A stretch of DNA of 19,472 nt from a virus, in UHGV virus genome UHGV-0294315; one strand, given 5' to 3'. Made by a program: the position numbers and the translations under genes. The notes below the pieces were generated by a model, which was given only the letters and a program-made list of their open reading frames with translations, had not been told where the DNA came from and ran no database searches. Below are positions 5,448 to 19,472 of this stretch, piece by piece. The first letter of the stretch is position 1; each line of letters opens with the position of its first letter.

Positions 5448-6164
5448 ATGGAAAATAAAAAATCACTGACGACAGAACAGCTCGAAGACGCTAAGCGGCT
5501 TAAGGCTTTGTATGAGTCAAAAAAGAAAGAATTGGGAATAACCCAATACTCAATCGCTGATGAACTGGGTATCACCCAAGGAGCGGTAGGGCATTATCTT
5601 AATGGCAGAAACGCGCTAAACGTTGAGGTCGCATCTGGTTTTGCACGTTTGTTGCAAGTCTCAATTGCTGATTTTAGCCAGTCAATTGCTGCCAAGGTTG
5701 CAGAACAGGCAGAAAGCCTTAAGAGCGATGCCAACGTAAGGTATGCAGGGGAATACAGAGCAGGAAAGAGGTATCCGGTGTTAAGCAGTATCCAGGCTGG
5801 CTCGTGGTGTGAAGCATGCGAACCATACACCATTAAAGACATAGATGTTTGGCTTGAGTCTGACGCGCATATTCAAGGCAATGCGTTCTGGCTTAAAGTG
5901 GAAGGTGATTCAATGACGGCACCGGTTGGGTTAAGCATTCCAGAGGGAACATTCGTTCTTTTCGATACCGGAAGGGAGGCGATCAACGGCAGCCTGGTCA
6001 TAGCAAAACTTTCTGACTCTAACGAAGCAACATTCAAGAAGCTGATAATCGACGGCGGAAATAAATACCTCAAGGGACTTAACCCTGCATGGCCTCTCGT
6101 GCCAATCAATGGAAACTGCAAGATTATAGGCGTTGCAATTGAGACAAAACTAAGGCTGGTTTGA
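5448..6164 (+). CDS. cI: CI-type prophage repressor (HTH N-terminal domain plus S24 LexA-like autocleavage domain)
   Basis: N-terminus LTTEQLEDAKRLKALYESKKKELGITQ resembles lambda CI; C-terminus FWLKVEGDSMTAPVGLSIPEG...ATFKKL...NGNCKIIGV resembles lambda CI / P22 C2. No Shine-Dalgarno upstream, consistent with a leaderless PRM transcript. Confidence 0.9.
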   Translation: MENKKSLTTEQLEDAKRLKALYESKKKELGITQYSIADELGITQGAVGHYLNGRNALNVEVASGFARLLQVSIADFSQSIAAKVAEQAESLKSDANVRYAGEYRAGKRYPVLSSIQAGSWCEACEPYTIKDIDVWLESDAHIQGNAFWLKVEGDSMTAPVGLSIPEGTFVLFDTGREAINGSLVIAKLSDSNEATFKKLIIDGGNKYLKGLNPAWPLVPINGNCKIIGVAIETKLRLV

Positions 6165-6183: not shown

Positions 6184-6552
6184 ATGGTTGGAACCGCTAT
6201 AGCAAGCTTTTTTGGGATGTTGGCAATCTCAACAATTTACGGCTTAGCGCATGCTTTTATTGCGAAATCTCTATCAGAAAAAATAAGCCAGGCTTGGGCG
6301 CATAGATCAGCTCGTTTCATGATTCTAGTGGTCATAGCAATACAAGGGATATCTGCATTTATCCTCTATGGATCAAGCTTATACCTGTTGTATCAAGGCG
6401 CGACATTTACGCCTTACACCAGTGATTACGGAACTCTATACGATGGTAGTGAAGACATCTCTATGGCTTGGATCGTCTTTGGTTTATCTATGGCCGTGTC
6501 TGTTGTAGCAGACATCATTAAGGTAATTCTCGTCTTAACCTTCGCTGACTAA
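6184..6552 (+). CDS. Small integral membrane protein (122 aa, 3-4 predicted TM helices) co-transcribed with cI, in the rex position
   Basis: RBS AAGGGGGA 6 nt before ATG, 19 nt after the cI stop. Hydrophobic segments (e.g. VGTAIASFFGMLAISTIYGLAHAFIA, FMILVVIAIQGISAFILYGSSLYLLY). No family recognised. Confidence 0.6.
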   Translation: MVGTAIASFFGMLAISTIYGLAHAFIAKSLSEKISQAWAHRSARFMILVVIAIQGISAFILYGSSLYLLYQGATFTPYTSDYGTLYDGSEDISMAWIVFGLSMAVSVVADIIKVILVLTFAD

Positions 6553-6637: not shown

Positions 6638-6724
6638 AAATATCCTTTGTATTCATTTGTTTATCATTATTTCATCAAAAATAAATACCTTGGGTATTTA
6701 CACAATAAAATACCTACAGTATTC
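6638..6724. promoter_or_regulatory. OL operator cluster / pL region
   Basis: AAATAT-CCTTT-GTATTC (6638-6654), AAATAC-CTTGG-GTATTT (6683-6699, perfect), AAATAC-CTACA-GTATTC (6708-6724), the same consensus as OR. Candidate -35 TTTACA at 6697-6702. Confidence 0.55.
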
Positions 6725-6770
6725 TTTAGCCATCAGCAGGACGCTGGTAGCCAAACGGAACAGATTGGCA

Positions 6771-6812
6771 GGCTCTTTAACATTGATGGGATTGTCCCGC
6801 CGAAATGCGGGA
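6771..6812 (+). promoter_or_regulatory. nutL-like site (boxA plus boxB hairpin)
   Basis: GGCTCTTTAACA (boxA) at 6771-6782 followed by the TCCCGC-CGAAAT-GCGGGA hairpin at 6795-6812, the same boxB as nutR. Confidence 0.55.
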
Positions 6813-6983
6813 ACCAAAGAGTAGTTGGCTTTGGGGTGTGGTGAAGGGTTCATGGACGGGAATATGTCGCACGTAAAGCGGCGAGGCCTGCGGGACTATT
6901 GCCGAATTGAAGTCGGACGAAGCGGGTCGAAATGGGTCTCCCACCGACCACACCACCAAAGCTAATCATCTGAGGAACAGAAA

Positions 6984-7143: not shown

Positions 7144-7449
7144 ATGACAGTAGTCATTACATATCTGGCTGACGATAACGCCAGAAATCGCCGCAGAGCA
7201 CGCAGACAGGCTCAACGTGAACAGGCAATGCAAGAGCAGCGACTGGCGCGAAAAATTGCGCTAAAGCTCTCTGGTTGCGTCAGGGCAGATAAAGCAGCAT
7301 CACTCGGAAGCCTTCGCTGCAAGAAGGCAGAAGAAGTCGATCGTAAACAGAATCGTATTTACTACCGCAAGCCACGCAGTGAAATGGGTGTGACATGCTC
7401 AGGCCGCCAGAAGCAACGCGGAAAATCAATTCCAGCTTATTACGATTGA
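7144..7449 (+). CDS. N: N-like transcription antiterminator (arginine-rich motif; P22 gene 24-like)
   Basis: RBS GGAGGT then ATG; MTVVITYLADDNARNRRRARRQAQREQ carries an arginine-rich motif near the N-terminus and resembles the P22 gp24 start (MTVITY...). First gene after OL/nutL. Confidence 0.7.
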   Translation: MTVVITYLADDNARNRRRARRQAQREQAMQEQRLARKIALKLSGCVRADKAASLGSLRCKKAEEVDRKQNRIYYRKPRSEMGVTCSGRQKQRGKSIPAYYD

Positions 7450-7457
7450 GGTGAGAT

Positions 7458-7709
7458 ATGGAATTTCATGAAAGTGCGATTTATGATTTTCGCGCTAACG
7501 CAAATTCAGTAAAACCACAGCCAATTGCAGTTCTTTTTAAAACAATGGGTGCGTGGGCTGTTTTATGCTTCGCCGCTGATGACACTGACGCAAGAATGGC
7601 AATAGGCCAAGAGATGGAGATGGACCCGACAAACGATGAATTCATAATTTATGGCGCTCCATCTAATTACTTACTTGATACCTGCAACATTTACAAAAAG
7701 GCTGCCTGA
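7458..7709 (+). CDS. Hypothetical protein (83 aa)
   Basis: RBS GAGGTGA upstream of ATG, 8 nt after the N stop. No family recognised. Confidence 0.55.
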   Translation: MEFHESAIYDFRANANSVKPQPIAVLFKTMGAWAVLCFAADDTDARMAIGQEMEMDPTNDEFIIYGAPSNYLLDTCNIYKKAA

Positions 7710-9199: not shown

Positions 9200-9331
9200 A
9201 TGATTTACGCAATCGCGGGAGGCGCTCGCATGGGTGCCTTCCAACTAAATGAATCTTTACTTGAACGAATCACCCGTAAATTACGTGACGGATGGAAAAG
9301 AGTTGAGGTCTTATTATGCGCAATGAAATAG
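9200..9331 (+). CDS. cIII: CIII (FtsH inhibitor, stabiliser of CII)
   Basis: Manual translation MIYAIAGGARMGAFQLNESLLERITRKLRDGWKRVEVLLCAMK; the core ESLLERITRKLRDGWKR is identical to lambda CIII as remembered. Confidence 0.8.
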   Translation: MIYAIAGGARMGAFQLNESLLERITRKLRDGWKRVEVLLCAMK

Positions 9332-9468
9332 CCATTAATCACCAGATGCTTCGTGCGGCACAAAACAAAGCAGTAATAGCCAGATTTATTGGTGATTCAA
9401 AAATGTGGCTTGAAGCAAATAAAGCGATGAAATCAGCGATCAACATTCCGTGGTATCGCAGGAAATGA
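9316..9468 (+). CDS. kil: Kil-like protein (host cell-division inhibitor), overlapping the cIII 3' end
   Basis: MRNEIAINHQMLRAAQNKAVIARFIGDSKMWLEANKAMKSAINIPWYRRK; overlap with cIII and position match the lambda cIII-kil arrangement. Sequence similarity to lambda Kil is from uncertain memory. Confidence 0.5.
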   Translation: MRNEIAINHQMLRAAQNKAVIARFIGDSKMWLEANKAMKSAINIPWYRRK

Positions 9469-9542
9469 GTTTTACAGATAACTGGTCAGACGAAGAATTC
9501 ATTCGTCAGATGAAAGAATTAATCGGCAACGAAGGAGATATT

Positions 9543-9713
9543 CATGTCACTTGCAACCACAGTGAAGGAGAGCAAGTTACAGAGACGCATGTACACGCAG
9601 CAGGCGTTAATGTATCGCCAGAAGGGAGATCGTGAAGGTGTTCGCGTATTTTTAAATGCGGCAAAGACTGAAGTATTAAATCAGCGTTATTTCCTTTGGC
9701 CGTGTCCATTCTG
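9543..9713 (+). CDS. Hypothetical small protein (56 aa); alternative overlapping frame 9465..9635
   Basis: ATG preceded by GGAGAT; MSLATTVKESKLQRRMYTQQALMYRQKGDREGVRVFLNAAKTEVLNQRYFLWPCPF. The other frame has a weaker RBS. Only one of the two is likely real. Confidence 0.35.
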
Positions 9714-9722
9714 AGGTGAATT

Positions 9723-10430
9723 ATGGATTTGAATAAATTCGATGAGCCATTCAGCCCTGAAGATATCGAATGGCGAATACAGCAAAGCGGTAAAACACGC
9801 GATGGCAAAGTGTGGGCTATGGTGCTGGCTTATGTCACGAACCGGGCAATCATGAAACGCCTGGACGATGTTTGCGGCAAAGCAGGATGGCGCAATGAAT
9901 ACCGCGATATTCCCAACAACGGCGGCGTTGAATGCGGCATATCAATCAAGATTGATTCCGAATGGGTAACCAAATGGGATGCTGCTGAAAACACGCAGGT
10001 AGAAGCCGTCAAAGGCGGTCGTTCCGGTGCAATGAAGCGCGCTGCCGTTCAGTGGGGAATCGGTCGGTATCTGTATAACCTTGAGGAAGGTTTTGCACAA
10101 ACATCTCTCGATAAAAAGCAGGGATGGCACAGGGCAAAACTCAAGGATGGAACAGGATTTTACTGGCTCCCTCCATCGCTGCCGGGATGGGCAATCCCAG
10201 CATCAGATAACAAACCATCACCAGAAAATACCAACCAGAAATCTCCATCGGTTGACTGCGAACAAATCCTGAAAGACTTCAGCGATTATGCGTCAACAGA
10301 AACTGACAAGAAAAAACTCATCGAGCGTTATCAGCGTGACTGGCAATTAATGGCTGGCAACGAGGAGGCGCAGGCTAAATGCGTTCAGGTAATGAACATC
10401 AGAGTTAACGAACTAAAACAGGCGGCATAA
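9723..10430 (+). CDS. Single-strand annealing protein, Rad52/Rad22-like family
   Basis: 235-aa ORF in the bet/erf position, directly upstream of ssb. AYVTNRAIMKRLDDVCGKAGWRNEY and GAMKRAAVQWGIGRYLY resemble the Rad52-type annealing fold. Family assignment is from memory. Confidence 0.6.
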   Translation: MDLNKFDEPFSPEDIEWRIQQSGKTRDGKVWAMVLAYVTNRAIMKRLDDVCGKAGWRNEYRDIPNNGGVECGISIKIDSEWVTKWDAAENTQVEAVKGGRSGAMKRAAVQWGIGRYLYNLEEGFAQTSLDKKQGWHRAKLKDGTGFYWLPPSLPGWAIPASDNKPSPENTNQKSPSVDCEQILKDFSDYASTETDKKKLIERYQRDWQLMAGNEEAQAKCVQVMNIRVNELKQAA

Positions 10431-10946
10431 ATGGCAAGCAGAGGCGTAAATAAGGTGATCATTATTGGTCGCCTTGGGCATGATCCAGAAATCAGATATT
10501 CACCATCAGGAACGGCATTTGCAAACCTTACCGTTGCTACGTCAGAACAATGGCGTGATAAGAAAACTGGAGAGCAAAAGGAGCAGACGGAGTGGCACCG
10601 CGTGGTAATGAGCGGGAAACTGGCAGAAATTGCCAGCGAATATCTGCGAAAAGGCTCTGAGGTTTATCTTGAAGGCAAATTGCGGACAAGAAAATGGCAG
10701 GATCAAAGCGGACAGGATCGGTTCACTACCGAAGTCATCGTGGGCGTTGGTGGAACCATGCAAATGCTTGGTGGCAAGCAAGGAGGCAATGAACAGTCTT
10801 CACCTCAGCGAAATAACGGTCAGCAACAAAGACAGCAATCTCAGCAGCAGGGGAATCACAGCGAACCACCTATGGATTTTGACGACGATATACCCTTTGC
10901 ACCAGTAACTCTCCCCTTCCCTCGTCACGCTATTCACGCAATTTAA
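10431..10946 (+). CDS. ssb: Single-stranded DNA-binding protein SSB with a 15-residue C-terminal extension
   Basis: [23 protein letters not shown]...[50 protein letters not shown]...MDFDDDIPF is near-identical to E. coli SSB, but the ORF continues [15 protein letters not shown] before the stop. Confidence 0.9.
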
Positions 10947-10959
10947 TCAGGAGAAAATC

Positions 10960-11256
10960 ATGCCAGCGCCTCTGTATGGTGCGGACGACGCGCGCCGCTG
11001 TTCCGGCAATTCCGTATCGGAGGTGCTGGATAAATTCAGACAAAACTACGACCTGATAATGTCGCTACCGCAGGAAACGAAAGAGGAAAAGGAATTTCGC
11101 CACTGTATATGGCTTGCAGAGAAAGAAGAACGAGAGCGAATTTACCAGACATCAATCCGACCATTCCGAAAAGCCACATATACCCACTTCCCTGAATATA
11201 TCGACCCGCGCCTGCGTAATTACCGCTCACGCTATGGCGCTATCAGTAATGACTGA
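10960..11256 (+). CDS. Hypothetical protein (98 aa)
   Basis: RBS AGGAGA upstream of ATG; intact ORF in the early-left operon. Confidence 0.5.
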   Translation: MPAPLYGADDARRCSGNSVSEVLDKFRQNYDLIMSLPQETKEEKEFRHCIWLAEKEERERIYQTSIRPFRKATYTHFPEYIDPRLRNYRSRYGAISND

Positions 11257-11266
11257 GGAATTAACA

Positions 11267-11557
11267 ATGAAAACAATGAAGCTAAACATCGACCTCGGAA
11301 AATACGTTATTACCGGAACCAAACACGATCTGATTCTTAGCGAAAGAGGAATTATCAAAGAAGGCGAGAATGCAGGGAAAGAAACACTAAGCCGTATCGG
11401 TTATTACAGCAAGTTTGAGCATCTGGTTAAAGAATTATGCAACCGTGAAATCCTGTTATCTCAGGCGCAGACGCTACAGGATATTCAGCAACATATCGAG
11501 ACTTTAGGTGTGTCACTTAGCATGGCTATTGACCAGGTCGTGGAGAGTAAATCATGA
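11267..11557 (+). CDS. Hypothetical protein (96 aa)
   Basis: Start at the internal ATG 11267 (RBS GAGGAA); the track's extension to 11114 would overlap the previous gene. Confidence 0.5.
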
Positions 11558-11718
11558 GAGGACTTGCATACAATCCCGGCATTCTTCCGGCAGAAATGAT
11601 TATTCGCCAACGCGTAAAGCCAATGCCATCGAGAGAGGAATTGCTTAAGAGAAATAGTTTCGGTTCTGTTAATGACAACAAATATCTGAATGCGATGTGG
11701 CGGAGTGGGAAGAAATGA
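11554..11718 (+). CDS. Hypothetical small protein (54 aa)
   Basis: Translationally coupled (ATGA overlaps at both ends); [54 protein letters not shown]. Confidence 0.35.
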
Positions 11719-12110
11719 AACAAATGTCACTAATTGAGATGGATGGATTTCTGAAAGGTAAATGCATCCCACGAGATTTAAAGGTTAACGAAACAAACGC
11801 TGAATATCTGGTGCGTAAATTTGCTGAAGCGGAGGCCAAGTGCGCGGCGCTGGCAGCGGAGAATGCAAAGCTGAAGAAGTTCTGCAAAGACGCTGCATTC
11901 GATGCCGATTACGAAGCAGAGCTAGGTATGGAGAGAGGTGGATTCAGTGATGCGCTTAACGAAATCAAAACCCCAGCCACCGATGCTTTCCTAGCTGAAG
12001 TACGGGCGCAGGGGGTAGAGATGTTTGCTGACAATCTGTTGTGTCCAGACCTTGATGGCACTATCCGTGACTTTGCTGCCCAGCTTCGCAAAGGAGGAGG
12101 GCAAAAATGA
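11715..12110 (+). CDS. Hypothetical protein (131 aa)
   Basis: Start at ATG 11715 overlapping the upstream stop; contains a predicted coiled-coil segment [20 protein letters not shown]. Confidence 0.5.
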
Positions 12111-12424
12111 CAATCACAAAACAACGAGTAGAAGAAATCATATCGCGCATTGAAATGTATGGGCATGGTGCAGGATATACCGCCGAAGAGGTTTATGACC
12201 TTGCTGTACTGGCGCTGAATTTATCAAATATCGCAAACCTGAAGCGATACGAGCTTGATATGGGAGGTTGCGACTCGTGCGGTCAGGATTGTGGCGCTGA
12301 CATGACTGAAGATTCTGATGGCGATTATGTCCTGTTTGATGACGTGGTTAAGTTGTTTGAGTTTGATACAACCACTCAGAAGTTAGAAGGCCAAGCAAAG
12401 GAGGCAACCAGTGAGCAAGATTGA
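12107..12424 (+). CDS. Hypothetical acidic protein (105 aa)
   Basis: ATGA-coupled to the upstream gene; CDSCGQDCG Cys cluster; acidic tail. Confidence 0.5.
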   Translation: MTITKQRVEEIISRIEMYGHGAGYTAEEVYDLAVLALNLSNIANLKRYELDMGGCDSCGQDCGADMTEDSDGDYVLFDDVVKLFEFDTTTQKLEGQAKEATSEQD

Positions 12425-13070
12425 CTATCAGACGCTGCGTGAGATAGCAAAACAGGCAACACAGGGTGAATGGGTCGCATTTATTTCGTCTGGTACTGGT
12501 ACATATGCGGTGCATACACCTGGTGATAAACGATGTGAAGACGTTATCAAATGGACCGGCTTTGATGGACAGAACAACGCAGAGAACAACGCTCGTTATA
12601 TCGCAGCTTTCAACCCTGAAGTAGTGCAGGCACTGCTGGATGAACGGGAAAGAAACCAGCAATACATCAAACGCCGCGACCAGGAGAACGAGGATATTGC
12701 GCTAACGGTAGGGAAACTGCGTGTTGAGCTGGAAGCCGCAGAGAAGCGCAACGCAAAATTACAAAGCGAGAATGCATACATCCGCAACCGGTTCAAAGAA
12801 CTGGACCTGTTAATCGGGAAAAACATTCTGGTCATGCAGGCTGCCATTATCGAATGGCAGGCAACTGGCGACGCTAAGAGCGGACTGGCATGGATTTATA
12901 ACACACTGTTTGGCCCTGGCGAATTACCGGACAAATCTGAGAAAGATGCTCAGGCCTACTTTAATCGCAAATATGCACCGATTGACGAAAAGCTTATGGC
13001 GCTTCACAAGTGGTTTTGGGAACAAAGTGAAGCCGAGCGCTCCGCTGGCATTCGCATCAAAGGAGAGTGA
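12411..13070 (+). CDS. Ead/Ea22-like phage protein (219 aa)
   Basis: GTG start 7 nt after AAGGAGG; N-terminus MSKIDYQTLREIAKQATQGEWV resembles the conserved start of enterobacterial ead/Ea22-like proteins (from memory). Confidence 0.5.
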   Translation: MSKIDYQTLREIAKQATQGEWVAFISSGTGTYAVHTPGDKRCEDVIKWTGFDGQNNAENNARYIAAFNPEVVQALLDERERNQQYIKRRDQENEDIALTVGKLRVELEAAEKRNAKLQSENAYIRNRFKELDLLIGKNILVMQAAIIEWQATGDAKSGLAWIYNTLFGPGELPDKSEKDAQAYFNRKYAPIDEKLMALHKWFWEQSEAERSAGIRIKGE

Positions 13071-13071
13071 A

Positions 13072-13437
13072 ATGGCACTGACGAAAAAACAACGTGCAGA
13101 ATTGCGCATGAAGTTTGGCGGTCGCTGTGCTTATTGCGGCTGTGAACTTGGCGAAAAGTGGCATGCAGACCATGTAAAACCGGTCATTCGTTTTGATGGA
13201 AATATGCTTCACCAGGAACGTGACGATATATCCAACATGGTTCCGGCATGCCACCCATGCAATCTGCACAAGCATTGCAGTAGCCTGGAAGATTATCGGC
13301 GAATTATCAGTGATGGTCGTCGTGAATTCCTTGCATCCGGGAAAGGCAAAGCGCTGGTTCGTATGGGATTGGTTGAAATGAAATCTGACCCGGTTGTGTT
13401 CTGGTTTGAAAAATATCAAGAAGGGGCTACGGTATGA
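13072..13437 (+). CDS. HNH endonuclease (121 aa)
   Basis: Start at the internal ATG (RBS AGGAGA); HNH signature CAYCGCEL...WHADHVKP...NMVPACHPCNLHK. Confidence 0.7.
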   Translation: MALTKKQRAELRMKFGGRCAYCGCELGEKWHADHVKPVIRFDGNMLHQERDDISNMVPACHPCNLHKHCSSLEDYRRIISDGRREFLASGKGKALVRMGLVEMKSDPVVFWFEKYQEGATV

Positions 13438-14210
13438 CCACTATTACCAAAGAGCGACTACTTACAATCAAGCAGTGGCGCGAAACATACGGACCTGGTA
13501 GCAACGTTGTACTGCCAGCAGAAGAAGCGGAAGAACTGGCACGAATTGCACTGGCATCGCTGGAAGCAGATCCAGTTGCTTATATTTTCAAACATCCGGC
13601 CGGGAAATTATTCTGGGCTTTGACGGATGAAAGTAATAAAGATCAATCGGACGTTATTCCTGTTTATGCCACCCCTCCAGTGCCAGTAGTACCTGAAGAA
13701 AAACCAATGCCTAACCCTCTTAAAATGTACGCGGTCGATGCTGTTGCCGCTATTGCAGAGGTGAGAGGCTGGAACGCCTGCCGCGCCGCCATGCTTCAGG
13801 CCGAACCTGTAAGTAATAGTGATGAGTTACCGCTGGACTATCTGCAAGGACACAAAGACGGCCTGGAGTGGGCTGCACAATTGGCAGAAGCCAATCATCC
13901 GCAAACAGGTGACTGGTTGTACGACGACCCAATCGATCTTGCCAGGGCGATTCGCAAAGGTCCTGATATGCCTACTGTTCAGGCTGGCAACTCTCCGGTA
14001 ACTCCGGATGGTTGGATAAGCTGTAGTGATCGAATGCCGGATACCAAAACAGCCGTTCTTGTTGCCGTGGAGTTTGACAGGAAAGGTGACTGGCGAATGA
14101 AATGGGCGACTTACATCCCGGGTCATCCTGACGCTAATGATGGGTGGATAATTCCTGGTGCGTCGTGGAAACCGTCACACTGGATGCGGCTACCAGAGCC
14201 TCCACTTTGA
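13434..14210 (+). CDS. DUF551-type phage protein (258 aa)
   Basis: ATGA-coupled to the HNH gene; C-terminal WISCSDRMPD...W...LPEPP resembles the DUF551 pattern common in enterobacterial prophages (from memory). Confidence 0.55.
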   Translation: MTTITKERLLTIKQWRETYGPGSNVVLPAEEAEELARIALASLEADPVAYIFKHPAGKLFWALTDESNKDQSDVIPVYATPPVPVVPEEKPMPNPLKMYAVDAVAAIAEVRGWNACRAAMLQAEPVSNSDELPLDYLQGHKDGLEWAAQLAEANHPQTGDWLYDDPIDLARAIRKGPDMPTVQAGNSPVTPDGWISCSDRMPDTKTAVLVAVEFDRKGDWRMKWATYIPGHPDANDGWIIPGASWKPSHWMRLPEPPL

Positions 14211-14306
14211 AAGCGAAGCTTATACATATCTTTTACATCAGCAATCTATTGTTAATCTCCAATCAATGTTACGTTGTCATCTCACTCATGCTTTGGAGGT
14301 AGTGAT

Positions 14307-14486
14307 ATGTCTTGTCCAAAATGCGGTTCTGGAAATATTGCAAAAGAAAAAACAATGCGTGGATGGTCTGGAGATTATGTGTGCTGCGATTGCGGATACA
14401 ACGACTCTAAAGACGCATTTGGAGAGCGTGGTAAAAACGAGTTTGTTAAAATTAATAAAGAAAGCGAAGGCAACGAAAAAAGCTAA
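14307..14486 (+). CDS. Small zinc-ribbon protein (59 aa)
   Basis: RBS GGAGGT; MSCPKCGSGNIAKEKTMRGWSGDYVCCDCGYNDSK has two CxxCG pairs. Confidence 0.5.
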   Translation: MSCPKCGSGNIAKEKTMRGWSGDYVCCDCGYNDSKDAFGERGKNEFVKINKESEGNEKS

Positions 14487-14551
14487 TTTATTTATTCATA
14501 TATGAAAACAATGTAACCAATATTCGAATTGAAGAACTGAAAGAACACCAA

Positions 14552-14575
14552 GCCGCCTGATGGCGGTTTTTTATT
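14552..14575 (+). terminator. Intrinsic terminator at the end of the accessory gene block, upstream of xis
   Basis: GCCGCC-TGAT-GGCGG hairpin followed by TTTTTTATT. Confidence 0.7.
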
Positions 14576-14617
14576 GCCTGATTTGCAGGTTCGATTCCCT
14601 ATTCGGAGATAGCACTC

Positions 14618-14818
14618 ATGCAACACGAACTACAACCTGATTCACTGGTTGATTTGAAATTCATCATGGCTGATACTGGCTTCGGTAAGACCTTCATCTA
14701 TGACCGGATTAAGTCCGGCGACCTGCCAAAAGCCAAAGTTATCCACGGGCGAGCAAGATGGTTATATCGTGACCATTGTGAATTCAAAAATAAGCTCTTA
14801 AGCCGCGCCAATGGGTAA
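14618..14818 (+). CDS. xis: Excisionase / AlpA-family small DNA-binding protein
   Basis: 66 aa, LVDLKFIMADTGFGKTFIYDRIKSGDLPKAKVIHGRARWLYRDHCEFKNKL fits the AlpA/Xis winged-HTH pattern; located immediately upstream of the integrase. Confidence 0.65.
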   Translation: MQHELQPDSLVDLKFIMADTGFGKTFIYDRIKSGDLPKAKVIHGRARWLYRDHCEFKNKLLSRANG

Positions 14819-15090
14819 AATAGCGGGTAAAATATTTTTCACATCTAAAAAACACCATTCCAATCAATCCCCTGCCGCGCCAAGTAGATGTCTGCAGGGG
14901 ACACTTTAAAGACCTTTCTCTACATTTCACTTCATTACATAACCACTTAAAAAAACAGTAAGTTATCACCGAATCGGCCTGATTTTCATTTCAGTTAATT
15001 TCATGACATTACAACCTCGTGATGGTATAAGTGATGGTATTCCCCAGTTCGATATGCAGATACCATCAATCTACCAAAATGAGTACAGAT

Positions 15091-16365
15091 ATGGCCATTA
15101 ATGTGCTTTCCCCCAAACAGATAGAAAACGCCAAGCCGAAGACCAATGATTACAAACTTACCGATGGAGGGAGTTTGTATCTACTGGTACGAAAGACTGG
15201 TGGAAAATACTGGCGTATGAATTATCGTTTTGATGGAAAACAAGTGACATTGGCATTAGGGGTCTACCCAGATGTCTCACTTGCAACAGCGCGGAAACGG
15301 CGTGATGAAGCCAGGCAACTACTAGCCGATGGTCGTGATCCTCGCGAAGCAAAGAAACCCAAAAAGGAAGACCCAATTTCCCCCACGTTCGAGAGTGTTG
15401 CCAGAGAGTGGCATAGTAGAACGATAGGGCATCCTGAGTGGAAAGAGATCACCCGTAAAAAAATTCTCCGAGAAATGGAAAACCACCTCTTTCCTGCCAT
15501 CGGTTCAAAGCCTATCGATACGCTCAAAACCCGTGACTTGATGCCGATGCTGGTTGAGATGACTGAGAAAGGAATTGGTGCCACAACGAGCCGGGTAAAA
15601 ACCACTATGACGAGCATCTTCCGTTATGCCGTGCAACGTGGAATTGTCGATTACAACCCTGCCCACGATCTAAAAGGTGCAATTACGACCCCCAAAGTAC
15701 GACATCGCCCCGCACTACCTCTCGAACGTTTACCTGAACTGTTAGCGAAAACGAGAAGTTACACGGGAAGACCATTGACTCGCCTAGCAGTTCTATTTTC
15801 CCTGCACACTTTTGTGCGATCCAGCGAACTACGACATGCCAGATGGGAGGAGATCGACATTGAAAATGGGCTATGGACGATACCAGGACAACGTGAAGAG
15901 ATCGCAGGGGTTAAATTCTCAGAGCGGGGTGCAAAGATGGGGGCTGCTCATTATGTCCCGCTATCTAGTCAGGCTATCGGGGTACTGGAGGATATAAGGA
16001 AAATCAGTGGTGAATATCTGCTGGTTTTCCCCGGTGACAGCAACCCATATAAACCGATGAGCGAAAACACAGTTAATAAAGCACTGCGAACGATGGGTTA
16101 CGACACTCAAAGTGATGTTTGCTTGCATGGGTTCAGGGCGATGGCCTGCTCTGCACTGACCGAATCAGGACTCTGGTCACGCGATGCAGTTGAACGGCAG
16201 ATGAGTCACCAAGAAAGAAACGAAGTGCGGGCAGCATATGTGCATCTTGCGCAGCACATGCAGGAACGCCGCAGAATGATGCAATGGTGGTCTAATTATC
16301 TGGAACTAAATAAGGACGAATTTCATGCTCCTTATGACTTATCAGGTATTAACATTATCAATTAA
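15091..16365 (+). CDS. int: Tyrosine integrase, P4-type (DUF4102 arm-binding N-terminus plus phage integrase catalytic domain)
   Basis: MAINVLSPKQIENAKPKTNDYKLTDGGSLYLLVRKTGGKYWRMNYRFDGKQVTLALGVYPDVSLATARKRRDEARQLLADGRDP is a typical P4-family integrase N-terminus. Start could also be ATG 15079 or the track's GTG 15031. Confidence 0.85.
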   Translation: MAINVLSPKQIENAKPKTNDYKLTDGGSLYLLVRKTGGKYWRMNYRFDGKQVTLALGVYPDVSLATARKRRDEARQLLADGRDPREAKKPKKEDPISPTFESVAREWHSRTIGHPEWKEITRKKILREMENHLFPAIGSKPIDTLKTRDLMPMLVEMTEKGIGATTSRVKTTMTSIFRYAVQRGIVDYNPAHDLKGAITTPKVRHRPALPLERLPELLAKTRSYTGRPLTRLAVLFSLHTFVRSSELRHARWEEIDIENGLWTIPGQREEIAGVKFSERGAKMGAAHYVPLSSQAIGVLEDIRKISGEYLLVFPGDSNPYKPMSENTVNKALRTMGYDTQSDVCLHGFRAMACSALTESGLWSRDAVERQMSHQERNEVRAAYVHLAQHMQERRRMMQWWSNYLELNKDEFHAPYDLSGINIIN

Positions 16366-16395
16366 ATTTTCTTATAATTTAAAACAGAGGTCATA

Positions 16396-17277
16396 ATGCA
16401 GCATTCAAAAGAGAATGAAACTATATTCTTAGGAAATCTATGGATTGACAAAAAAATACCACCATTAGAATATTGTTCATTTGAACGCGCTTCAAGACTA
16501 TTAGAATGCGAGATTGATGATTTATTACACCTATACGAAATAGGCGCTTTTAATATCGCATTCAAGGCGGATGGACTTGCAGTTAGATTTAATGTTAATT
16601 TCCTCTATAAAAATCAGAAAATGGAAATTGACTTAATTCATCCCGTATTAACTAATCAATCACTAGAGATGGAATTTTCAACAATATGGTATGACCTTAA
16701 AGATGACTCCTTTGAACATTTTGAAAATGGGCTTCAAATTATAGGATTTGCCTGTGGTATTTGGTACGCCGATGATATGATAAGTGACATAAAAAATGGA
16801 TTAGCTATAGATCCAGATTATGAATTCAGGCTTAAACCGGTAAAAATACGAGATAATGTTTTGATGGCAACGGCCTCATATGAAGGAAATAAGGTCATTG
16901 ATATTCCATTTGAAGATCTTCTTATCATGCGAAGAGATTTAGAGTTAATATGGAAATCAGTAAAAACTGGAATTCCTATGCCAAGTTTACTTACGAAAAG
17001 AATTTCATCTGAACCTAAAATCCCCAAGCGATTAAATAACACTGCTGAGCATCATGCAAAAAATAGGGGGGGGTTATTAAATGCAGCCATATATATATTA
17101 GCAAAATACCCAAGCGAATGTCGTGGTGAAAGAAAAGAGATAAGTCCTGAAAAGTGGACTAACGCCATAATTAAACATTTAGGAGAGCTACCTCCAATAT
17201 TTATCACTAATGAACAAGAAATCTTAAGAAAATTACGATTAGCGGTTAATCATGCGGGATTAAAACAAAAGGGGTAG
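16396..17277 (+). CDS. Hypothetical 293-aa protein, AT-rich standalone gene between int and alpA
   Basis: Own consensus -10 TATAAT (16373-16378) and RBS AGAGG; long intact ORF in strongly AT-rich DNA. No domain recognised. Confidence 0.6.
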   Translation: MQHSKENETIFLGNLWIDKKIPPLEYCSFERASRLLECEIDDLLHLYEIGAFNIAFKADGLAVRFNVNFLYKNQKMEIDLIHPVLTNQSLEMEFSTIWYDLKDDSFEHFENGLQIIGFACGIWYADDMISDIKNGLAIDPDYEFRLKPVKIRDNVLMATASYEGNKVIDIPFEDLLIMRRDLELIWKSVKTGIPMPSLLTKRISSEPKIPKRLNNTAEHHAKNRGGLLNAAIYILAKYPSECRGERKEISPEKWTNAIIKHLGELPPIFITNEQEILRKLRLAVNHAGLKQKG

Positions 17278-17379
17278 ACTGAAACAATCTACAGGTAGAG
17301 TTGATTACACTACCTTCACAGCATTTTGATATCCCCATAGTATCTGCCGTGTTCATTACATAACACGGCAGGTAATTTC

Positions 17380-17595
17380 ATGACATTAAAAACTTATCCT
17401 ATCACTGGACATGCCCGCCCACGAGCTACTGCTGACTTTTTGCAAATAAGTACGGTTACTCTCTGGCGCTGGGAAAAGAACAATCCTGAATTTCCCAAAT
17501 CTATACGCATTTCAAAACGGGTATCTGTTTACGATGCACAAGAAATTAGGCAGTGGGTTAAAGCTCAATCAGCAGGATTGGAGGAAGTAGTGTAA
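17380..17595 (+). CDS. alpA: AlpA / HTH_17-family transcriptional regulator (P4 Vis-like)
   Basis: 71 aa, ATADFLQISTVTLWRWEKNNPEFPKSIRISKRVSVYDAQEIRQWVK matches the AlpA/excisionase HTH pattern. Confidence 0.65.
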   Translation: MTLKTYPITGHARPRATADFLQISTVTLWRWEKNNPEFPKSIRISKRVSVYDAQEIRQWVKAQSAGLEEVV

Positions 17596-17644
17596 TGACA
17601 ATATTAACAAAGCTGGGGAGAAAAAAGCCTCCCCAACGTATTAA

Positions 17645-17839
17645 TCAATTCTTTGGTTCTAAACCTCGGCTTTGTAACTCTTTGCGTAGAATGCGCTTGA
17701 TCCAAGCCGCTAGCGATTCATCGCCATCCTGCTGTTGTGCTTGTTCCATCAGTTCACGCAGTTCAGGGTCAAGTCGGAACTGGAATGGCGGATTCCCACG
17801 TCTTTCATTTTTGTGTGTTGACACGTCAATTACACCCAT
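17645..17839 (-). CDS. Ribbon-helix-helix (Arc/CopG/MetJ-like) DNA-binding protein
   Basis: 64 aa; NPPFQFRLDPELRELMEQ resembles an RHH beta-strand/helix-A signature. Its promoter region carries repeated TGTAATG half-sites. Confidence 0.5.
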   Translation of the reverse strand: MGVIDVSTHKNERRGNPPFQFRLDPELRELMEQAQQQDGDESLAAWIKRILRKELQSRGLEPKN

Positions 17840-17873
17840 TGTAATGTATTTATGTGTAATGACACATTACACA
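17826..17873. promoter_or_regulatory. Operator-like array of TGTAATG / CATTACA half-sites at the RHH gene start
   Basis: Perfect palindrome GTGTAATG-ACA-CATTACAC (17854-17872) plus further copies TTGTAATG (17839-17846) and AATTACAC (17829-17836). Confidence 0.45.
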
Positions 17874-17955
17874 CAGAAAAACAAAATAGCAACGCCCCGG
17901 AGTGTTTGCAGCACCACCGAGGCGTCTGACCAGCACGTTATATGAGGTAACGAAG

Positions 17956-18132
17956 ATGGCTAAACAGAAGTGTACCTGGTTATTTGCGGCGATCAACCGC
18001 AGTCAACGTAATGCCCGTCCGGTAATGTTAAGGATCACCGCAGATAACGAGCGATCAGCGCGGCGCAGACTTGCCCCGGACTATGTACTGAGCTTTGCCG
18101 GGCGCATTCCCTGCGGAGGTGAACATGCGTAA
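17956..18132 (+). CDS. Icd-like host cell-division inhibitor (P4-family), 58 aa
   Basis: RBS TGAGGT; MAKQKCTWLFAAINRSQRNARPVMLRITADNERSARRRLAPDYVLSFAGRIPCGGEHA resembles Icd-like proteins of P4-type elements (W-FAA...ER-ARR-LA-DY-L-FAGRIP pattern, from memory). Confidence 0.5.
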   Translation: MAKQKCTWLFAAINRSQRNARPVMLRITADNERSARRRLAPDYVLSFAGRIPCGGEHA

Positions 18133-18484
18133 TTATCCGCATCCCGGCGAACGCTGGCAGCATGAACGTGGCTGGACGGTCACGATTATCCGATTAATAG
18201 AAGCCTCGCCCTCTGTGGCGCTGGTTAATCCTGAATTCAGCTGTGAAGTGCTGATACGTCATGACAGCGACAACCAGCTTTCTTCCTGCCCTCTGGCATG
18301 GTTTGAACAGCGATATACGCGCCTGTTTGATGTACCGCTCTTTAAGCCTGCACCAGCTCCTGCAGGCGGTAGTGGTTCCGGCCCGCTGACACTGCATCCG
18401 TCTGTGCTATTTATCCGCTGGCGGGAGCGTAGCATATGGTGTTCTGCTGAGCCTGATGACGGTCACTATTCAAAGTTTCTCTGA
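18125..18484 (+). CDS. Hypothetical protein (119 aa)
   Basis: Start at internal ATG 18125, overlapping the Icd-like stop. Confidence 0.45.
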   Translation: MRNYPHPGERWQHERGWTVTIIRLIEASPSVALVNPEFSCEVLIRHDSDNQLSSCPLAWFEQRYTRLFDVPLFKPAPAPAGGSGSGPLTLHPSVLFIRWRERSIWCSAEPDDGHYSKFL

Positions 18485-18515
18485 CAAAACACCGCTGAAA
18501 ACGGAGTAATCCACA

Positions 18516-18800
18516 ATGAATATTTCAAACGGGCACAACGGTGCTCAGGGCCAGACTTTGCCTGAAAAACACAATACCGGTGCTTTTGCCTATGGGTTGT
18601 CAGAGGACGGTTTCGGAAAGCTGACCCGCGCAAGAAATGCCTGCGACATGCTCCAGCTTCTCTTTTCTGAATACCCGTCTCAGGCCGGAGCACTGGACGC
18701 AGGCTTTGCGCCTGGTGTCGCCGCGCTGATGGAGTACCTGCGGGCAGATTTGACGGATATTGCACACAGCTGCGCACTGATTGAAGGAGGTGCCAGATGA
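18516..18800 (+). CDS. Hypothetical protein (94 aa)
   Basis: RBS GGAG upstream of ATG; intact ORF. Confidence 0.5.
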   Translation: MNISNGHNGAQGQTLPEKHNTGAFAYGLSEDGFGKLTRARNACDMLQLLFSEYPSQAGALDAGFAPGVAALMEYLRADLTDIAHSCALIEGGAR

Positions 18801-19180
18801 ACCAGCCGCAGGTTTCCATTTTCCCGGCAGAAATGACCACCGCGCTTTACCGGTGGGCTATTGCTTCAGCATGGCGGCAGAAAATGCTGAACGAAACTGG
18901 CAATGATCAGTATGGTCCGCACAGCCTGACGGTGGAGCGTATTGAAATGGCCATTGCGCTGCATATCGAGTGCGCACTGATTAACGAGTACGGCGAAGCA
19001 CAGGGCGCCGCTGCCGCGCTGGCACTGCTGACTGACATGCTGGAGCCGTCACTGCTGACCGCGCCGCCGGTACTGACCGCGCGCGGTTGTGAAGTAATGG
19101 CGGAGATGTACCGCACGCTTCCGGCGGCCTTTGATGTCTGCTGCAGTACCGGTGTGACGTTGTATCAGGGGGAAGTATGA
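18797..19180 (+). CDS. Hypothetical protein (127 aa)
   Basis: ATGA-coupled to the genes on both sides. Confidence 0.5.
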   Translation: MNQPQVSIFPAEMTTALYRWAIASAWRQKMLNETGNDQYGPHSLTVERIEMAIALHIECALINEYGEAQGAAAALALLTDMLEPSLLTAPPVLTARGCEVMAEMYRTLPAAFDVCCSTGVTLYQGEV

Positions 19181-19472
19181 CAATACAGACGGTTACGCAG
19201 ATTTCAGCCGCCGCGCGGGGGAAATGGCCCGTTATTCTGCAGATGCTGCGTATTGATGTACCTGAAAACGGCAGGCACGGTCCCTGCCCGAAATGTGGGG
19301 GCAAGGATCGTTTTCGCCTTGATGACCTTGACGGGCGCGGGACGTGGATCTGCAGCCAGTGTGGCAATGGTGACGGTCTGGATCTGGTTAAGCTCGTAAC
19401 CGGTTACAGCGTCAGAAAGGCTGCGCAGGAGGTGGCGCAGATGCTTAATGTGCCGGATGTGCAGGAACTGCC
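19177..19472 (+). CDS. P4 alpha-type primase, N-terminal zinc-binding domain (gene runs off the right edge)
   Basis: Open to the window end; GPCPKCGGKDRFRLDDLDGRGTWICSQCGNGDGLDLV is the primase zinc-ribbon pattern CPxCGG...CxxCG. Confidence 0.6.
   Translation, partial: MTIQTVTQISAAARGKWPVILQMLRIDVPENGRHGPCPKCGGKDRFRLDDLDGRGTWICSQCGNGDGLDLVKLVTGYSVRKAAQEVAQMLNVPDVQEL

Follow-up and report, generated by a model that had tools for sequence, protein, structure and literature searches.

A probably N-dependent accessory segment of a lambdoid prophage predicted to encode a RecBCD hijacker and a diverged relative of the OLD inhibitor Oad2

The 19,472-nucleotide (nt) stretch of the virus genome UHGV-0294315 analyzed here (the window) carries, at positions 10960 to 14486, an unbroken run of nine plus-strand genes, which we refer to as g1 to g9. 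With a probability of roughly 0.8, this block is the accessory "ea" or exo-xis segment of the N-antiterminated early-left (pL) operon of an HK446/HK620/P22-type lambdoid prophage and includes a RecBCD hijacker (g1) and a diverged relative of the OLD inhibitor Oad2 (g4). An earlier description made from the sequence alone (the original prediction) had presented the block as a chain of genes of unknown function, some of which might serve anti-defense; this last suggestion finds support for g1, as an Abc2 protein, and for g4, as a member of the Oad2/EaE family, while the remaining seven genes are not tied to such a role. The components of the block are as follows (aa, amino acids).

10960..11256, plus strand: g1, Abc2, anti-RecBCD protein, 98 aa (PF11043, PDB 8B1T, identity to P22 and HK446)
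11267..11557, plus strand: g2, DUF5405 protein, 96 aa (PF17399, identity to HK446 gp29)
11554..11718, plus strand: g3, DUF2737 protein, 54 aa, isoelectric point 10.7 (PF10930)
11715..12110, plus strand: g4, Oad2/EaE-family protein, 131 aa, candidate inhibitor of an OLD-type nuclease (Oad2 homology, position)
12107..12424, plus strand: g5, acidic protein, 105 aa, isoelectric point 4.1 (phrog_3126, full length)
12411..13070, plus strand: g6, Ead/Ea22-type protein, 219 aa, GTG start (PF13935)
13072..13437, plus strand: g7, free-standing HNH endonuclease cassette, 121 aa (PF01844)
13434..14210, plus strand: g8, EaA/hkaE-type modular protein, 258 aa, with C-terminal DUF551 (PF04448)
14211..14306, plus strand: conserved 96-nt non-coding spacer before eaG (identity with HK620, E41, and P22)
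14307..14486, plus strand: g9, EaG zinc-ribbon protein, 59 aa (identity to HK620 hkaD and P22 EaG)

About 97% of this span is coding. All nine genes have strong PHROG matches (E 3e-31 to 3e-94) and intact reading frames with ribosome-binding sites. Open reading frames (ORFs) on the opposite strand have no PHROG match and are shadows. A search for a tenth ORF, including in the 14211-14306 gap, gave no credible candidate, and the predicted run of ten consecutive plus-strand ORFs therefore stands as a run of nine. Four of the eight junctions are ATGA overlaps (g2/g3, g3/g4, g4/g5, and g7/g8), g5 and g6 overlap by 14 nt, and the gaps measure 1 nt (g6/g7), 10 nt (g1/g2), and 96 nt (g8/g9); seven of the eight junctions thus have an overlap or a gap of at most 10 nt. 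The statement that most junctions are of the ATGA or TAATG type was overstated, since no TAATG junction occurs within the block and the sole TAA-ATG lies upstream of it, between the Rad52-like gene and ssb. The overlaps would allow translational coupling along the chain. Pfam recovered all four families named previously (Ead_Ea22, HNH, DUF551, and zinc ribbon). It also identified three that had been missed, Abc2 (PF11043), DUF5405, and DUF2737, so that only g4 and g5 lack a Pfam family instead of the several ORFs first thought to have no recognizable one.

The description as a chain of unknown function was wrong for g1. PF11043 (Anti-RecBCD_p2) covers residues 1-98 of the protein (205 bits versus a cut-off of 25, E 1.5e-61), and g1 matches P22 Abc2 as bound to RecBCD in PDB 8B1T (E 8e-56), with 92% identity to P22 Abc2 and 98% to HK446 gp30. 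The gene starts 13 nt past ssb, which itself follows the gene for an annealing protein. By homology to this characterized protein, g1 is Abc2 and is predicted to target host RecBCD. P22 Abc2 is known to bind RecC and to change the response of RecBCD to Chi; in the solved complex it contacts the region of RecC that recognizes Chi, and RecBCD is co-opted instead of being blocked (PMC9836394).

The second protein of interest, g4, is related to a family for which activity was reported in a 2026 preprint (bioRxiv 10.64898/2026.07.10.737580). According to that work, HK446 gp27 (Oad2) binds and inhibits the P2 OLD abortive-infection tRNase and is related to P22 EaE; an HK75 homolog that shares 54% identity with Oad2 has no inhibitory effect on P2 OLD; and OLD toxicity is triggered by Gp33, a small protein of HK75 and HK446. 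We found that g4 aligns with HK446 gp27 over its full length (46% identity, E 4e-40), with deletions totaling 44 residues, and that it is 47% identical to the HK75 homolog, 48% to HK620 hkaH, and 34% to P22 EaE. Our own comparison of Oad2 with the HK75 homolog gave 54% identity, and because this equals the figure in the preprint, we consider gp27 to be correctly identified. Across the Oad2/EaE family, which also includes HK97 gp37, the N-terminal 37 residues, an "ALAAENA.LK" coiled-coil segment, and "QLRKGG.Q" are kept and the middle is variable; in g4, the N-terminal 37 residues are ~92% identical to those of Oad2, and the family motifs, including "QLRKGG," are conserved. A search of g4 against the sequences of solved structures gave no match. 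The exact 131-aa allele is rare, occurring in four contigs and always in the order abc2-DUF5405-DUF2737-g4-g5-Ea22.

Gene order points in the same direction as these alignments. In HK446, the genes for Abc2 (gp30), DUF5405 (gp29), DUF2737 (gp28), and Oad2 (gp27) follow the recombination module directly and in the same order as g1 to g4, with g1, g2, and g3 being 98, 99, and 100% identical to gp30, gp29, and gp28, respectively. An Oad2/EaE-family gene directly after abc2 and DUF2737 in the early-left operon is a feature of HK446, HK75, HK620, and P22 alike. Among the intervening genes, g3 matches PF10930 (DUF2737) at E 4e-30 and is 96% identical to HK620 hkaI and 74% to P22 orf56, while g2 matches PF17399 (DUF5405) with 25.4 bits versus a cut-off of 21.6; most g2 homologs start at the MKLNI methionine at 11276. 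The AlphaFold2 model of g2 (predicted local distance difference test [pLDDT] score 88.6) has a four-stranded sheet and two helices. It has no structural analog in the PDB (best E 0.22), and the fold recurs in uncharacterized proteins from phages of Salmonella, Morganella, Bacillus, Lactobacillus, and Cellulophaga. We did not adopt the label "replication initiation protein" that PHROG and annotations attach to g2, as it traces to unverified phage annotations.

Upstream of the block, the window also encodes a close relative of the reported trigger.

9465..9635, plus strand: Gp33 homolog, reported trigger of OLD toxicity, 56 aa (96% identical to HK446 gp33, 100% to HK75 gp33)

As in HK446, an ATGA overlap joins this gene to kil. 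A second 56-aa ORF at 9544-9714 lies in a different frame and overlaps the first (9465-9635) by 92 nt; its end is 8 nt short of the gene for the annealing protein, in the position of arf in P22. The two ORFs have full-length matches to different PHROGs (phrog_2123 and phrog_1723), and the pair is co-conserved in HK75, HK446, LR-60, E41, and other loci, in which annotators choose either one.

The position of the block relative to regulatory sites and neighboring genes was determined from the following features.

5448-6164: cI-type repressor, with cro and cII on the other strand
6697-6725, plus strand: pL-like promoter inside operator-like repeats
6771-6779, plus strand: nutL boxA, GGCTCTTTA (from sequence)
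About 6793-6815, plus strand: nutL boxB hairpin (from sequence)
7144-7449, plus strand: N-like antiterminator gene
9316-9468, plus strand: kil, 98% identical to HK446 kil
9723-10430, plus strand: Rad52/Erf-like annealing protein (phrog_1097, E 3.5e-130)
10431-10946, plus strand: SSB (phrog_44, E 2e-69)
14550..14575, plus strand: intrinsic terminator closing the block (stem 14550-14569, then a T-run)
14574..14611, plus strand: pI-type promoter with a cII box, TTGC-N5-TTGC, at 14574-14586 (identity with the annotated HK620 site)
14618..14818, plus strand: TorI/AlpA-type excisionase (xis), the last gene at this prophage end (100% identical to HK620 hkaC; phrog_66)

Plus-strand terminator-like hairpins are located between pL and the block at 7697, 8165, and 9631. 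Sigma-70 promoter-like sites are depleted in 9500-15200, with one site (on the minus strand) versus 8.3 +/- 3.1 in shuffled sequences, which fits a long promoter-free operon. In the terminator ahead of xis, an 8-bp stem that includes five G-C pairs closes a 4-nt loop and precedes a T-run; its free energy is -13 kcal/mol (z -2.7 versus shuffles), in agreement with the strong terminator expected there. The pL-like promoter, nutL, the N gene, and the intervening terminator-like sites likewise support the earlier placement of the block in the distal pL operon. Judged by this layout, the block would be the distal part of an N-dependent early-left operon.

Together, these observations suggest how the segment might work. 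Transcription from pL would have to pass the terminator-like sites at 7697, 8165, and 9631, and the genes would therefore be expressed only when N acts at nutL, i.e., upon induction or in the early phase of infection. Across such short gaps and overlaps, ribosomes could then move from one cistron into another. The g1 protein would bind RecC of RecBCD and redirect the enzyme without destroying it, which would favor the annealing protein and SSB that the phage itself encodes just upstream. Tampering with RecBCD triggers OLD-type abortive-infection nucleases, and the operon also encodes the near-identical Gp33, the reported OLD trigger. It would thus pair RecBCD manipulation (Abc2 and Gp33) with a family whose known member neutralizes a nuclease sensing such manipulation; on the basis of this pairing, we infer that g4 is most likely a counter-measure of that type. 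Of the other products, g6 would be an Ea22-type oligomeric scaffold with an exchangeable C-terminal domain, and g2, g3, g8, and g9 are conserved phage proteins.

Several points weigh against this interpretation. Functional evidence exists for only two of the nine genes, and that on Oad2 comes from a single unreviewed preprint. At 46% identity to Oad2 and with ~44 fewer residues, g4 may have no anti-OLD activity; such activity cannot be assumed, because a homolog 54% identical to Oad2 is inactive. HK446 Oad2 acts alone, with no g5 after it, and the linkage of g4 to g5 described below may reflect recent co-transfer instead of a shared function. Fold searches for g2 and g5 returned nothing informative. 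We therefore hold only tentatively, and at somewhat less than even odds, that g4 acts as a counter-measure on some OLD-family nuclease with a specificity of its own.

The gene after g4 has a distribution that bears on this question. The g5 protein matches phrog_3126 and belongs to a narrow family, the listed members of which are all >80% identical; it has no structural analog in the PDB and no match among the sequences of solved structures; its AlphaFold2 model is mediocre (pLDDT 72.6). In an exhaustive search, residues ~40-84 emerged as a portable module, RY(D/E)L..CDSCGQDCGADM.ED.DGDYVLF.DV, which other proteins carry in fusion with DUF551 or with a dATP/dGTP pyrophosphohydrolase domain. The CDSCGQDCGADM motif carried by g5 is undescribed. 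The identical g5 protein was listed in 73 blocks of the assembly collection, of which six loci were examined. In all six, Ead_Ea22-type sequence starts 14 nt before the g5 stop codon, and in five an Oad2/EaE-family gene is directly upstream, the sixth (L019) having a more distant relative there. At two of the six loci, L016 and L019, the cluster lies after replication genes and before terminase rather than in the pL operon, and hence it moves between early-left and early-right operons. These two loci are on contigs ERZ27242454 k141_77400 and GCA_044022435.1, in which Ea22/DUF551-type sequence follows g5.

A pair of EaE-like and g5-like genes with the same 4-nt overlap is also present in the siphoviruses Vi II-E1, whose g4 counterpart is 54% identical to g4, and swi2. 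These siphoviruses belong to the non-lambdoid genera Swiduovirus and Macdonaldcampvirus, and in the stretches examined the pair has terminase or HNH genes close by and neither an integrase nor a repressor gene in its vicinity. In other prophages, the pair is also found in a nin-like position. On this evidence g5 may work with g4 or be merely linked to it. A bolder proposal is that g4-g5 is a conserved two-gene counter-defense unit that moves between unrelated phage types, in which g4 would be an Oad2 specificity variant directed at another OLD-family (ABC ATPase-TOPRIM) nuclease and the g5 CDSCGQDCGADM module a new portable effector or adaptor domain; we regard this proposal as doubtful. Peptides of g1 to g3, g5, and g9 did not occur in the accessory-gene supplements of Silas et al.

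The N-termini encoded by g5 (12107-12220) and g8 (13434-13560) resemble each other, with 45% identity over 38 residues and the pattern "MT(T)ITK.R...." Many other proteins of ea regions begin with this N-terminal module, which may serve all of them in recombination or interaction.

The g6 protein is composed of two parts. Residues 2-121 match PF13935 (Ead_Ea22, an N-terminal segment plus a central coiled coil; 126.6 bits, E 1.3e-36), whereas for the C-terminal half the only matches are other PHROGs and a PADLOC profile, "DpdH" (PDLC02890). In a search of the PDB sequences, assumed to include the solved C-terminal domain of lambda Ea22, g6 had no match at E <= 1; its C-terminal half thus appears unrelated to that of lambda Ea22. 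The exact g6 protein is not on record. The PADLOC match covers residues 108-204 (12732-13025) against the 127-position profile (E 1e-37). We rejected an assignment of g6 as DpdH: there is no NCBIfam match, DpdH/DpdI are described as BrxC-like, and the five genome loci at which this C-terminal domain was found all lie in ea regions of prophages (from Citrobacter, Erwinia, Intestinirhabdus, and Enterobacter). The profile is probably mislabeled or contaminated, with a genuine domain shared with a Dpd-island protein as the alternative.

The one role tested for the Ea22 family promotes lysogeny, and the C-terminal domain of lambda Ea22 has no activity by itself (PMC10834534); by analogy, g6 may influence lysogeny like other Ea22 proteins. 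It is on such grounds that the genes other than abc2 could be modulators of the lysis-lysogeny decision or of host physiology, as in lambda exo-xis, rather than counter-defense genes. This explanation, which we consider rather unlikely, draws on the Ead_Ea22 N-terminal/coiled-coil domain of g6, on reports that tested Ea22 members favor lysogeny and other exo-xis genes favor lysis (PMC10834534; see also PMC7093339), on the presence of DUF551 also in YfdS, which is linked to oxidative-stress tolerance, and on early pL transcripts having the right timing for the decision. However, the closest characterized relative of g4 is an anti-OLD protein, the C-terminal domain of g6 differs from the lambda domain that is in any case inactive on its own, and the g4-g5 relatives in non-lambdoid siphoviruses have no repressor or integrase nearby in the stretches examined. 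Modulation of lysogeny and counter-defense are not mutually exclusive.

The next gene, g7, matches PF01844 with 28.2 bits versus a cut-off of 21.4 (E 2e-6), and its translation has the arrangement C19xxC22...D33-H34...N55...C60xxC63-N64-x-H66, i.e., the catalytic His-Me finger residues and two CxxC pairs of zinc ligands. NCBIfam gave only sub-threshold matches, to generic HNH (g7) and zinc-ribbon (g9) models. Searches against the sequences of solved structures returned nothing for g7, g8, or g2 and generic zinc-ribbon noise only for g9. The g7 cassette fits exactly between the stop codon of g6 and the start codon of g8; the junction is empty in strain LS45 and is occupied in other strains by a different gene of ~0.5 kb. 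The HNH gene is present in 708 of 5,426 complete E. coli genomes and is a pseudogene in E. coli strain LR-60. This presence, absence, and replacement at precise gene borders is the behavior of a mobile cassette and would be compatible with homing; g7 is an intact HNH endonuclease and probably a mobile nuclease cassette.

In g8, PF04448 (DUF551) spans residues 193-257 (72.5 bits, E 5e-20), the N- and C-terminal parts match P22 EaA and HK620 hkaE, and the exact protein is not on record. The A+T-rich spacer that follows, 14211-14306, is identical in HK620 and E. coli E41, has one mismatch to Salmonella phage P22, and is better conserved than the 3' end of the upstream eaA/g8. Neither a consensus promoter nor a match to Rfam was found in it, and it is not predicted to fold stably (z -0.25). 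The g9 protein is 100% identical to HK620 hkaD and 93% to P22 EaG. It scores 23.1 bits against Lar_restr_allev (PF14354), below the cut-off of 28.6, and its similarity to RalR/Lar of Rac is weak (blastp E 5e-4, hhalign probability 18%); the sub-threshold Pfam score and the hhalign value make a relationship to Lar/RalR too weak to claim. Relatives of EaG in databases are often frameshifted. In the +1 frame over eaG (14158-14505), several database "EaG" proteins carry alternative-frame ORF stretches, which are frameshifted reads or gene calls and not true variants.

Comparison with public records supports the earlier view that this region is highly variable. No phage or complete E. coli genome on record covers at least 80% of the block, the best reaching 62%. 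A 914-bp block (11845-12758) is common to several prophages at 98-99% identity, with breakpoints inside g4 and, in g6, just after the Ead_Ea22 domain (12758); these ends match the published domain-swapping of Ea22 proteins (PMC10834534). The presence or absence of the HNH gene adds to this picture, and the gene set appears to have been assembled by recombination at gene and domain boundaries. All of the modules are common in enterobacterial prophages; what is unusual is their combination, which is unrecorded, and the short g4 allele.

Among known systems, HK446 is close in gene order and shares the Gp33 trigger (96%) and kil (98%). It differs in that Oad2 is 44 residues longer than g4 and is followed directly by xis, whereas the window has the five additional genes g5 to g9, and in having Erf and gp31 in place of the Rad52-like protein and SSB. 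The P22 "ea" region (abc2, orf56, eaE, orf45, eaF, eaD, eaI, eaA, eaG, and eaC) and HK620 hkaJ-hkaD occupy the same place in the operon, with the order Abc2, DUF2737, EaE/hkaH, EaD/hkaG, EaA/hkaE, and EaG/hkaD; both have the same 96-nt spacer before eaG, and HK620 also has the same xis and att. In contrast, both lack g2 (DUF5405), g5, and the HNH gene, eaF, eaI, and eaC are absent from the window, and the resemblance of g6 to EaD and of g8 to EaA is confined to parts of the proteins.

The original prediction had equated the block with the lambda b2/ea region, which needs correction: the lambda equivalent is exo-xis (orf61, orf63, orf60a, orf73, ea22, and ea8.5), not b2 (PMC10834534). That segment likewise lies between the recombination genes and xis and is early, N-dependent, and dispensable, with mosaic Ea22-type proteins (PMC10834534). 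Unlike the block, lambda has Gam in place of Abc2; only the N-terminal/coiled-coil domain of Ea22 is shared, and the window has no homologs of orf61, orf63, orf60a, orf73, or ea8.5. Lar/RalR of the Rac prophage, known for restriction alleviation and as a DNase toxin, is likewise a small zinc-ribbon protein (CxxC...CxxC); it resembles g9 weakly and is encoded in the same operon segment near recombination genes. It differs in that the similarity of g9 falls below the Pfam cut-off and that Rfam searches found no RalA-like antisense RNA. Across the whole window, Rfam gave no match at gathering thresholds, and a permissive threshold applied to 14150-15050 gave sub-threshold noise only.

This mosaicism could also mean that most of the block is selfish or near-neutral cargo, with a homing HNH gene and shuffled modules that persist by recombination and not through benefit to the phage, as the variable occupancy of a single exact slot by the HNH cassette (present, absent, or replaced, with a pseudogene in LR-60), the breakpoints inside genes, the exact g6 and g8 proteins not on record, and the frequently frameshifted EaG relatives might be taken to indicate. 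We judge this to be improbable, given that all nine reading frames are intact with ribosome-binding sites, that g1 to g3, g5, and g9 show 93-100% identity among phages of E. coli, Shigella, and Salmonella, and that recombination at domain borders keeps the proteins in frame. It is highly improbable that the block is a prophage defense or superinfection exclusion system protecting the lysogen, as might be read from the PADLOC matches (g6 to "DpdH"; g7 to PtuB/HNH, E 3e-8) and from the frequency of defense genes in prophage accessory regions, since the block lacks an internal promoter-like site, is separated from the distant pL by terminators, and should therefore be silent in a lysogen, the "DpdH" match has the shortcomings described above, and the PtuB matches represent generic HNH similarity with no partner ATPase gene present.

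Other parts of the window yielded additional observations. Directly downstream of the cI-type repressor and on the same strand, 6184-6552 encodes a predicted membrane protein of 122 aa (phrog_6534), in the position of lambda rex-type genes expressed in lysogens. Homology to HK620 ends at ~14882-14904, at the attP core just after xis. The integrase gene at 15031-16365 and the genes beyond it (15031-19472) belong to a P4-like element distinct from the prophage; the same neighbor is present in E. coli E41, where it includes Icd-like, DUF5375, and DUF927 genes. In that case, the integrase of the prophage itself would sit at the opposite prophage end, as in KplE1. The window contains no tRNA gene and no Chi sites.

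Under the reading that we favor, i.e., an accessory segment of the pL operon with an Abc2 protein and a diverged Oad2 relative, a single operon holds a RecBCD hijacker, a near-identical Gp33 trigger of OLD, and a rare shortened allele of the only family known to inhibit OLD. The g4-g5 pair and the portable motif of g5 are cheap candidates for defense-system screens. A comparison of the g4 allele with the active Oad2 and the inactive HK75 homolog could reveal the residues that set inhibitor specificity in this family.

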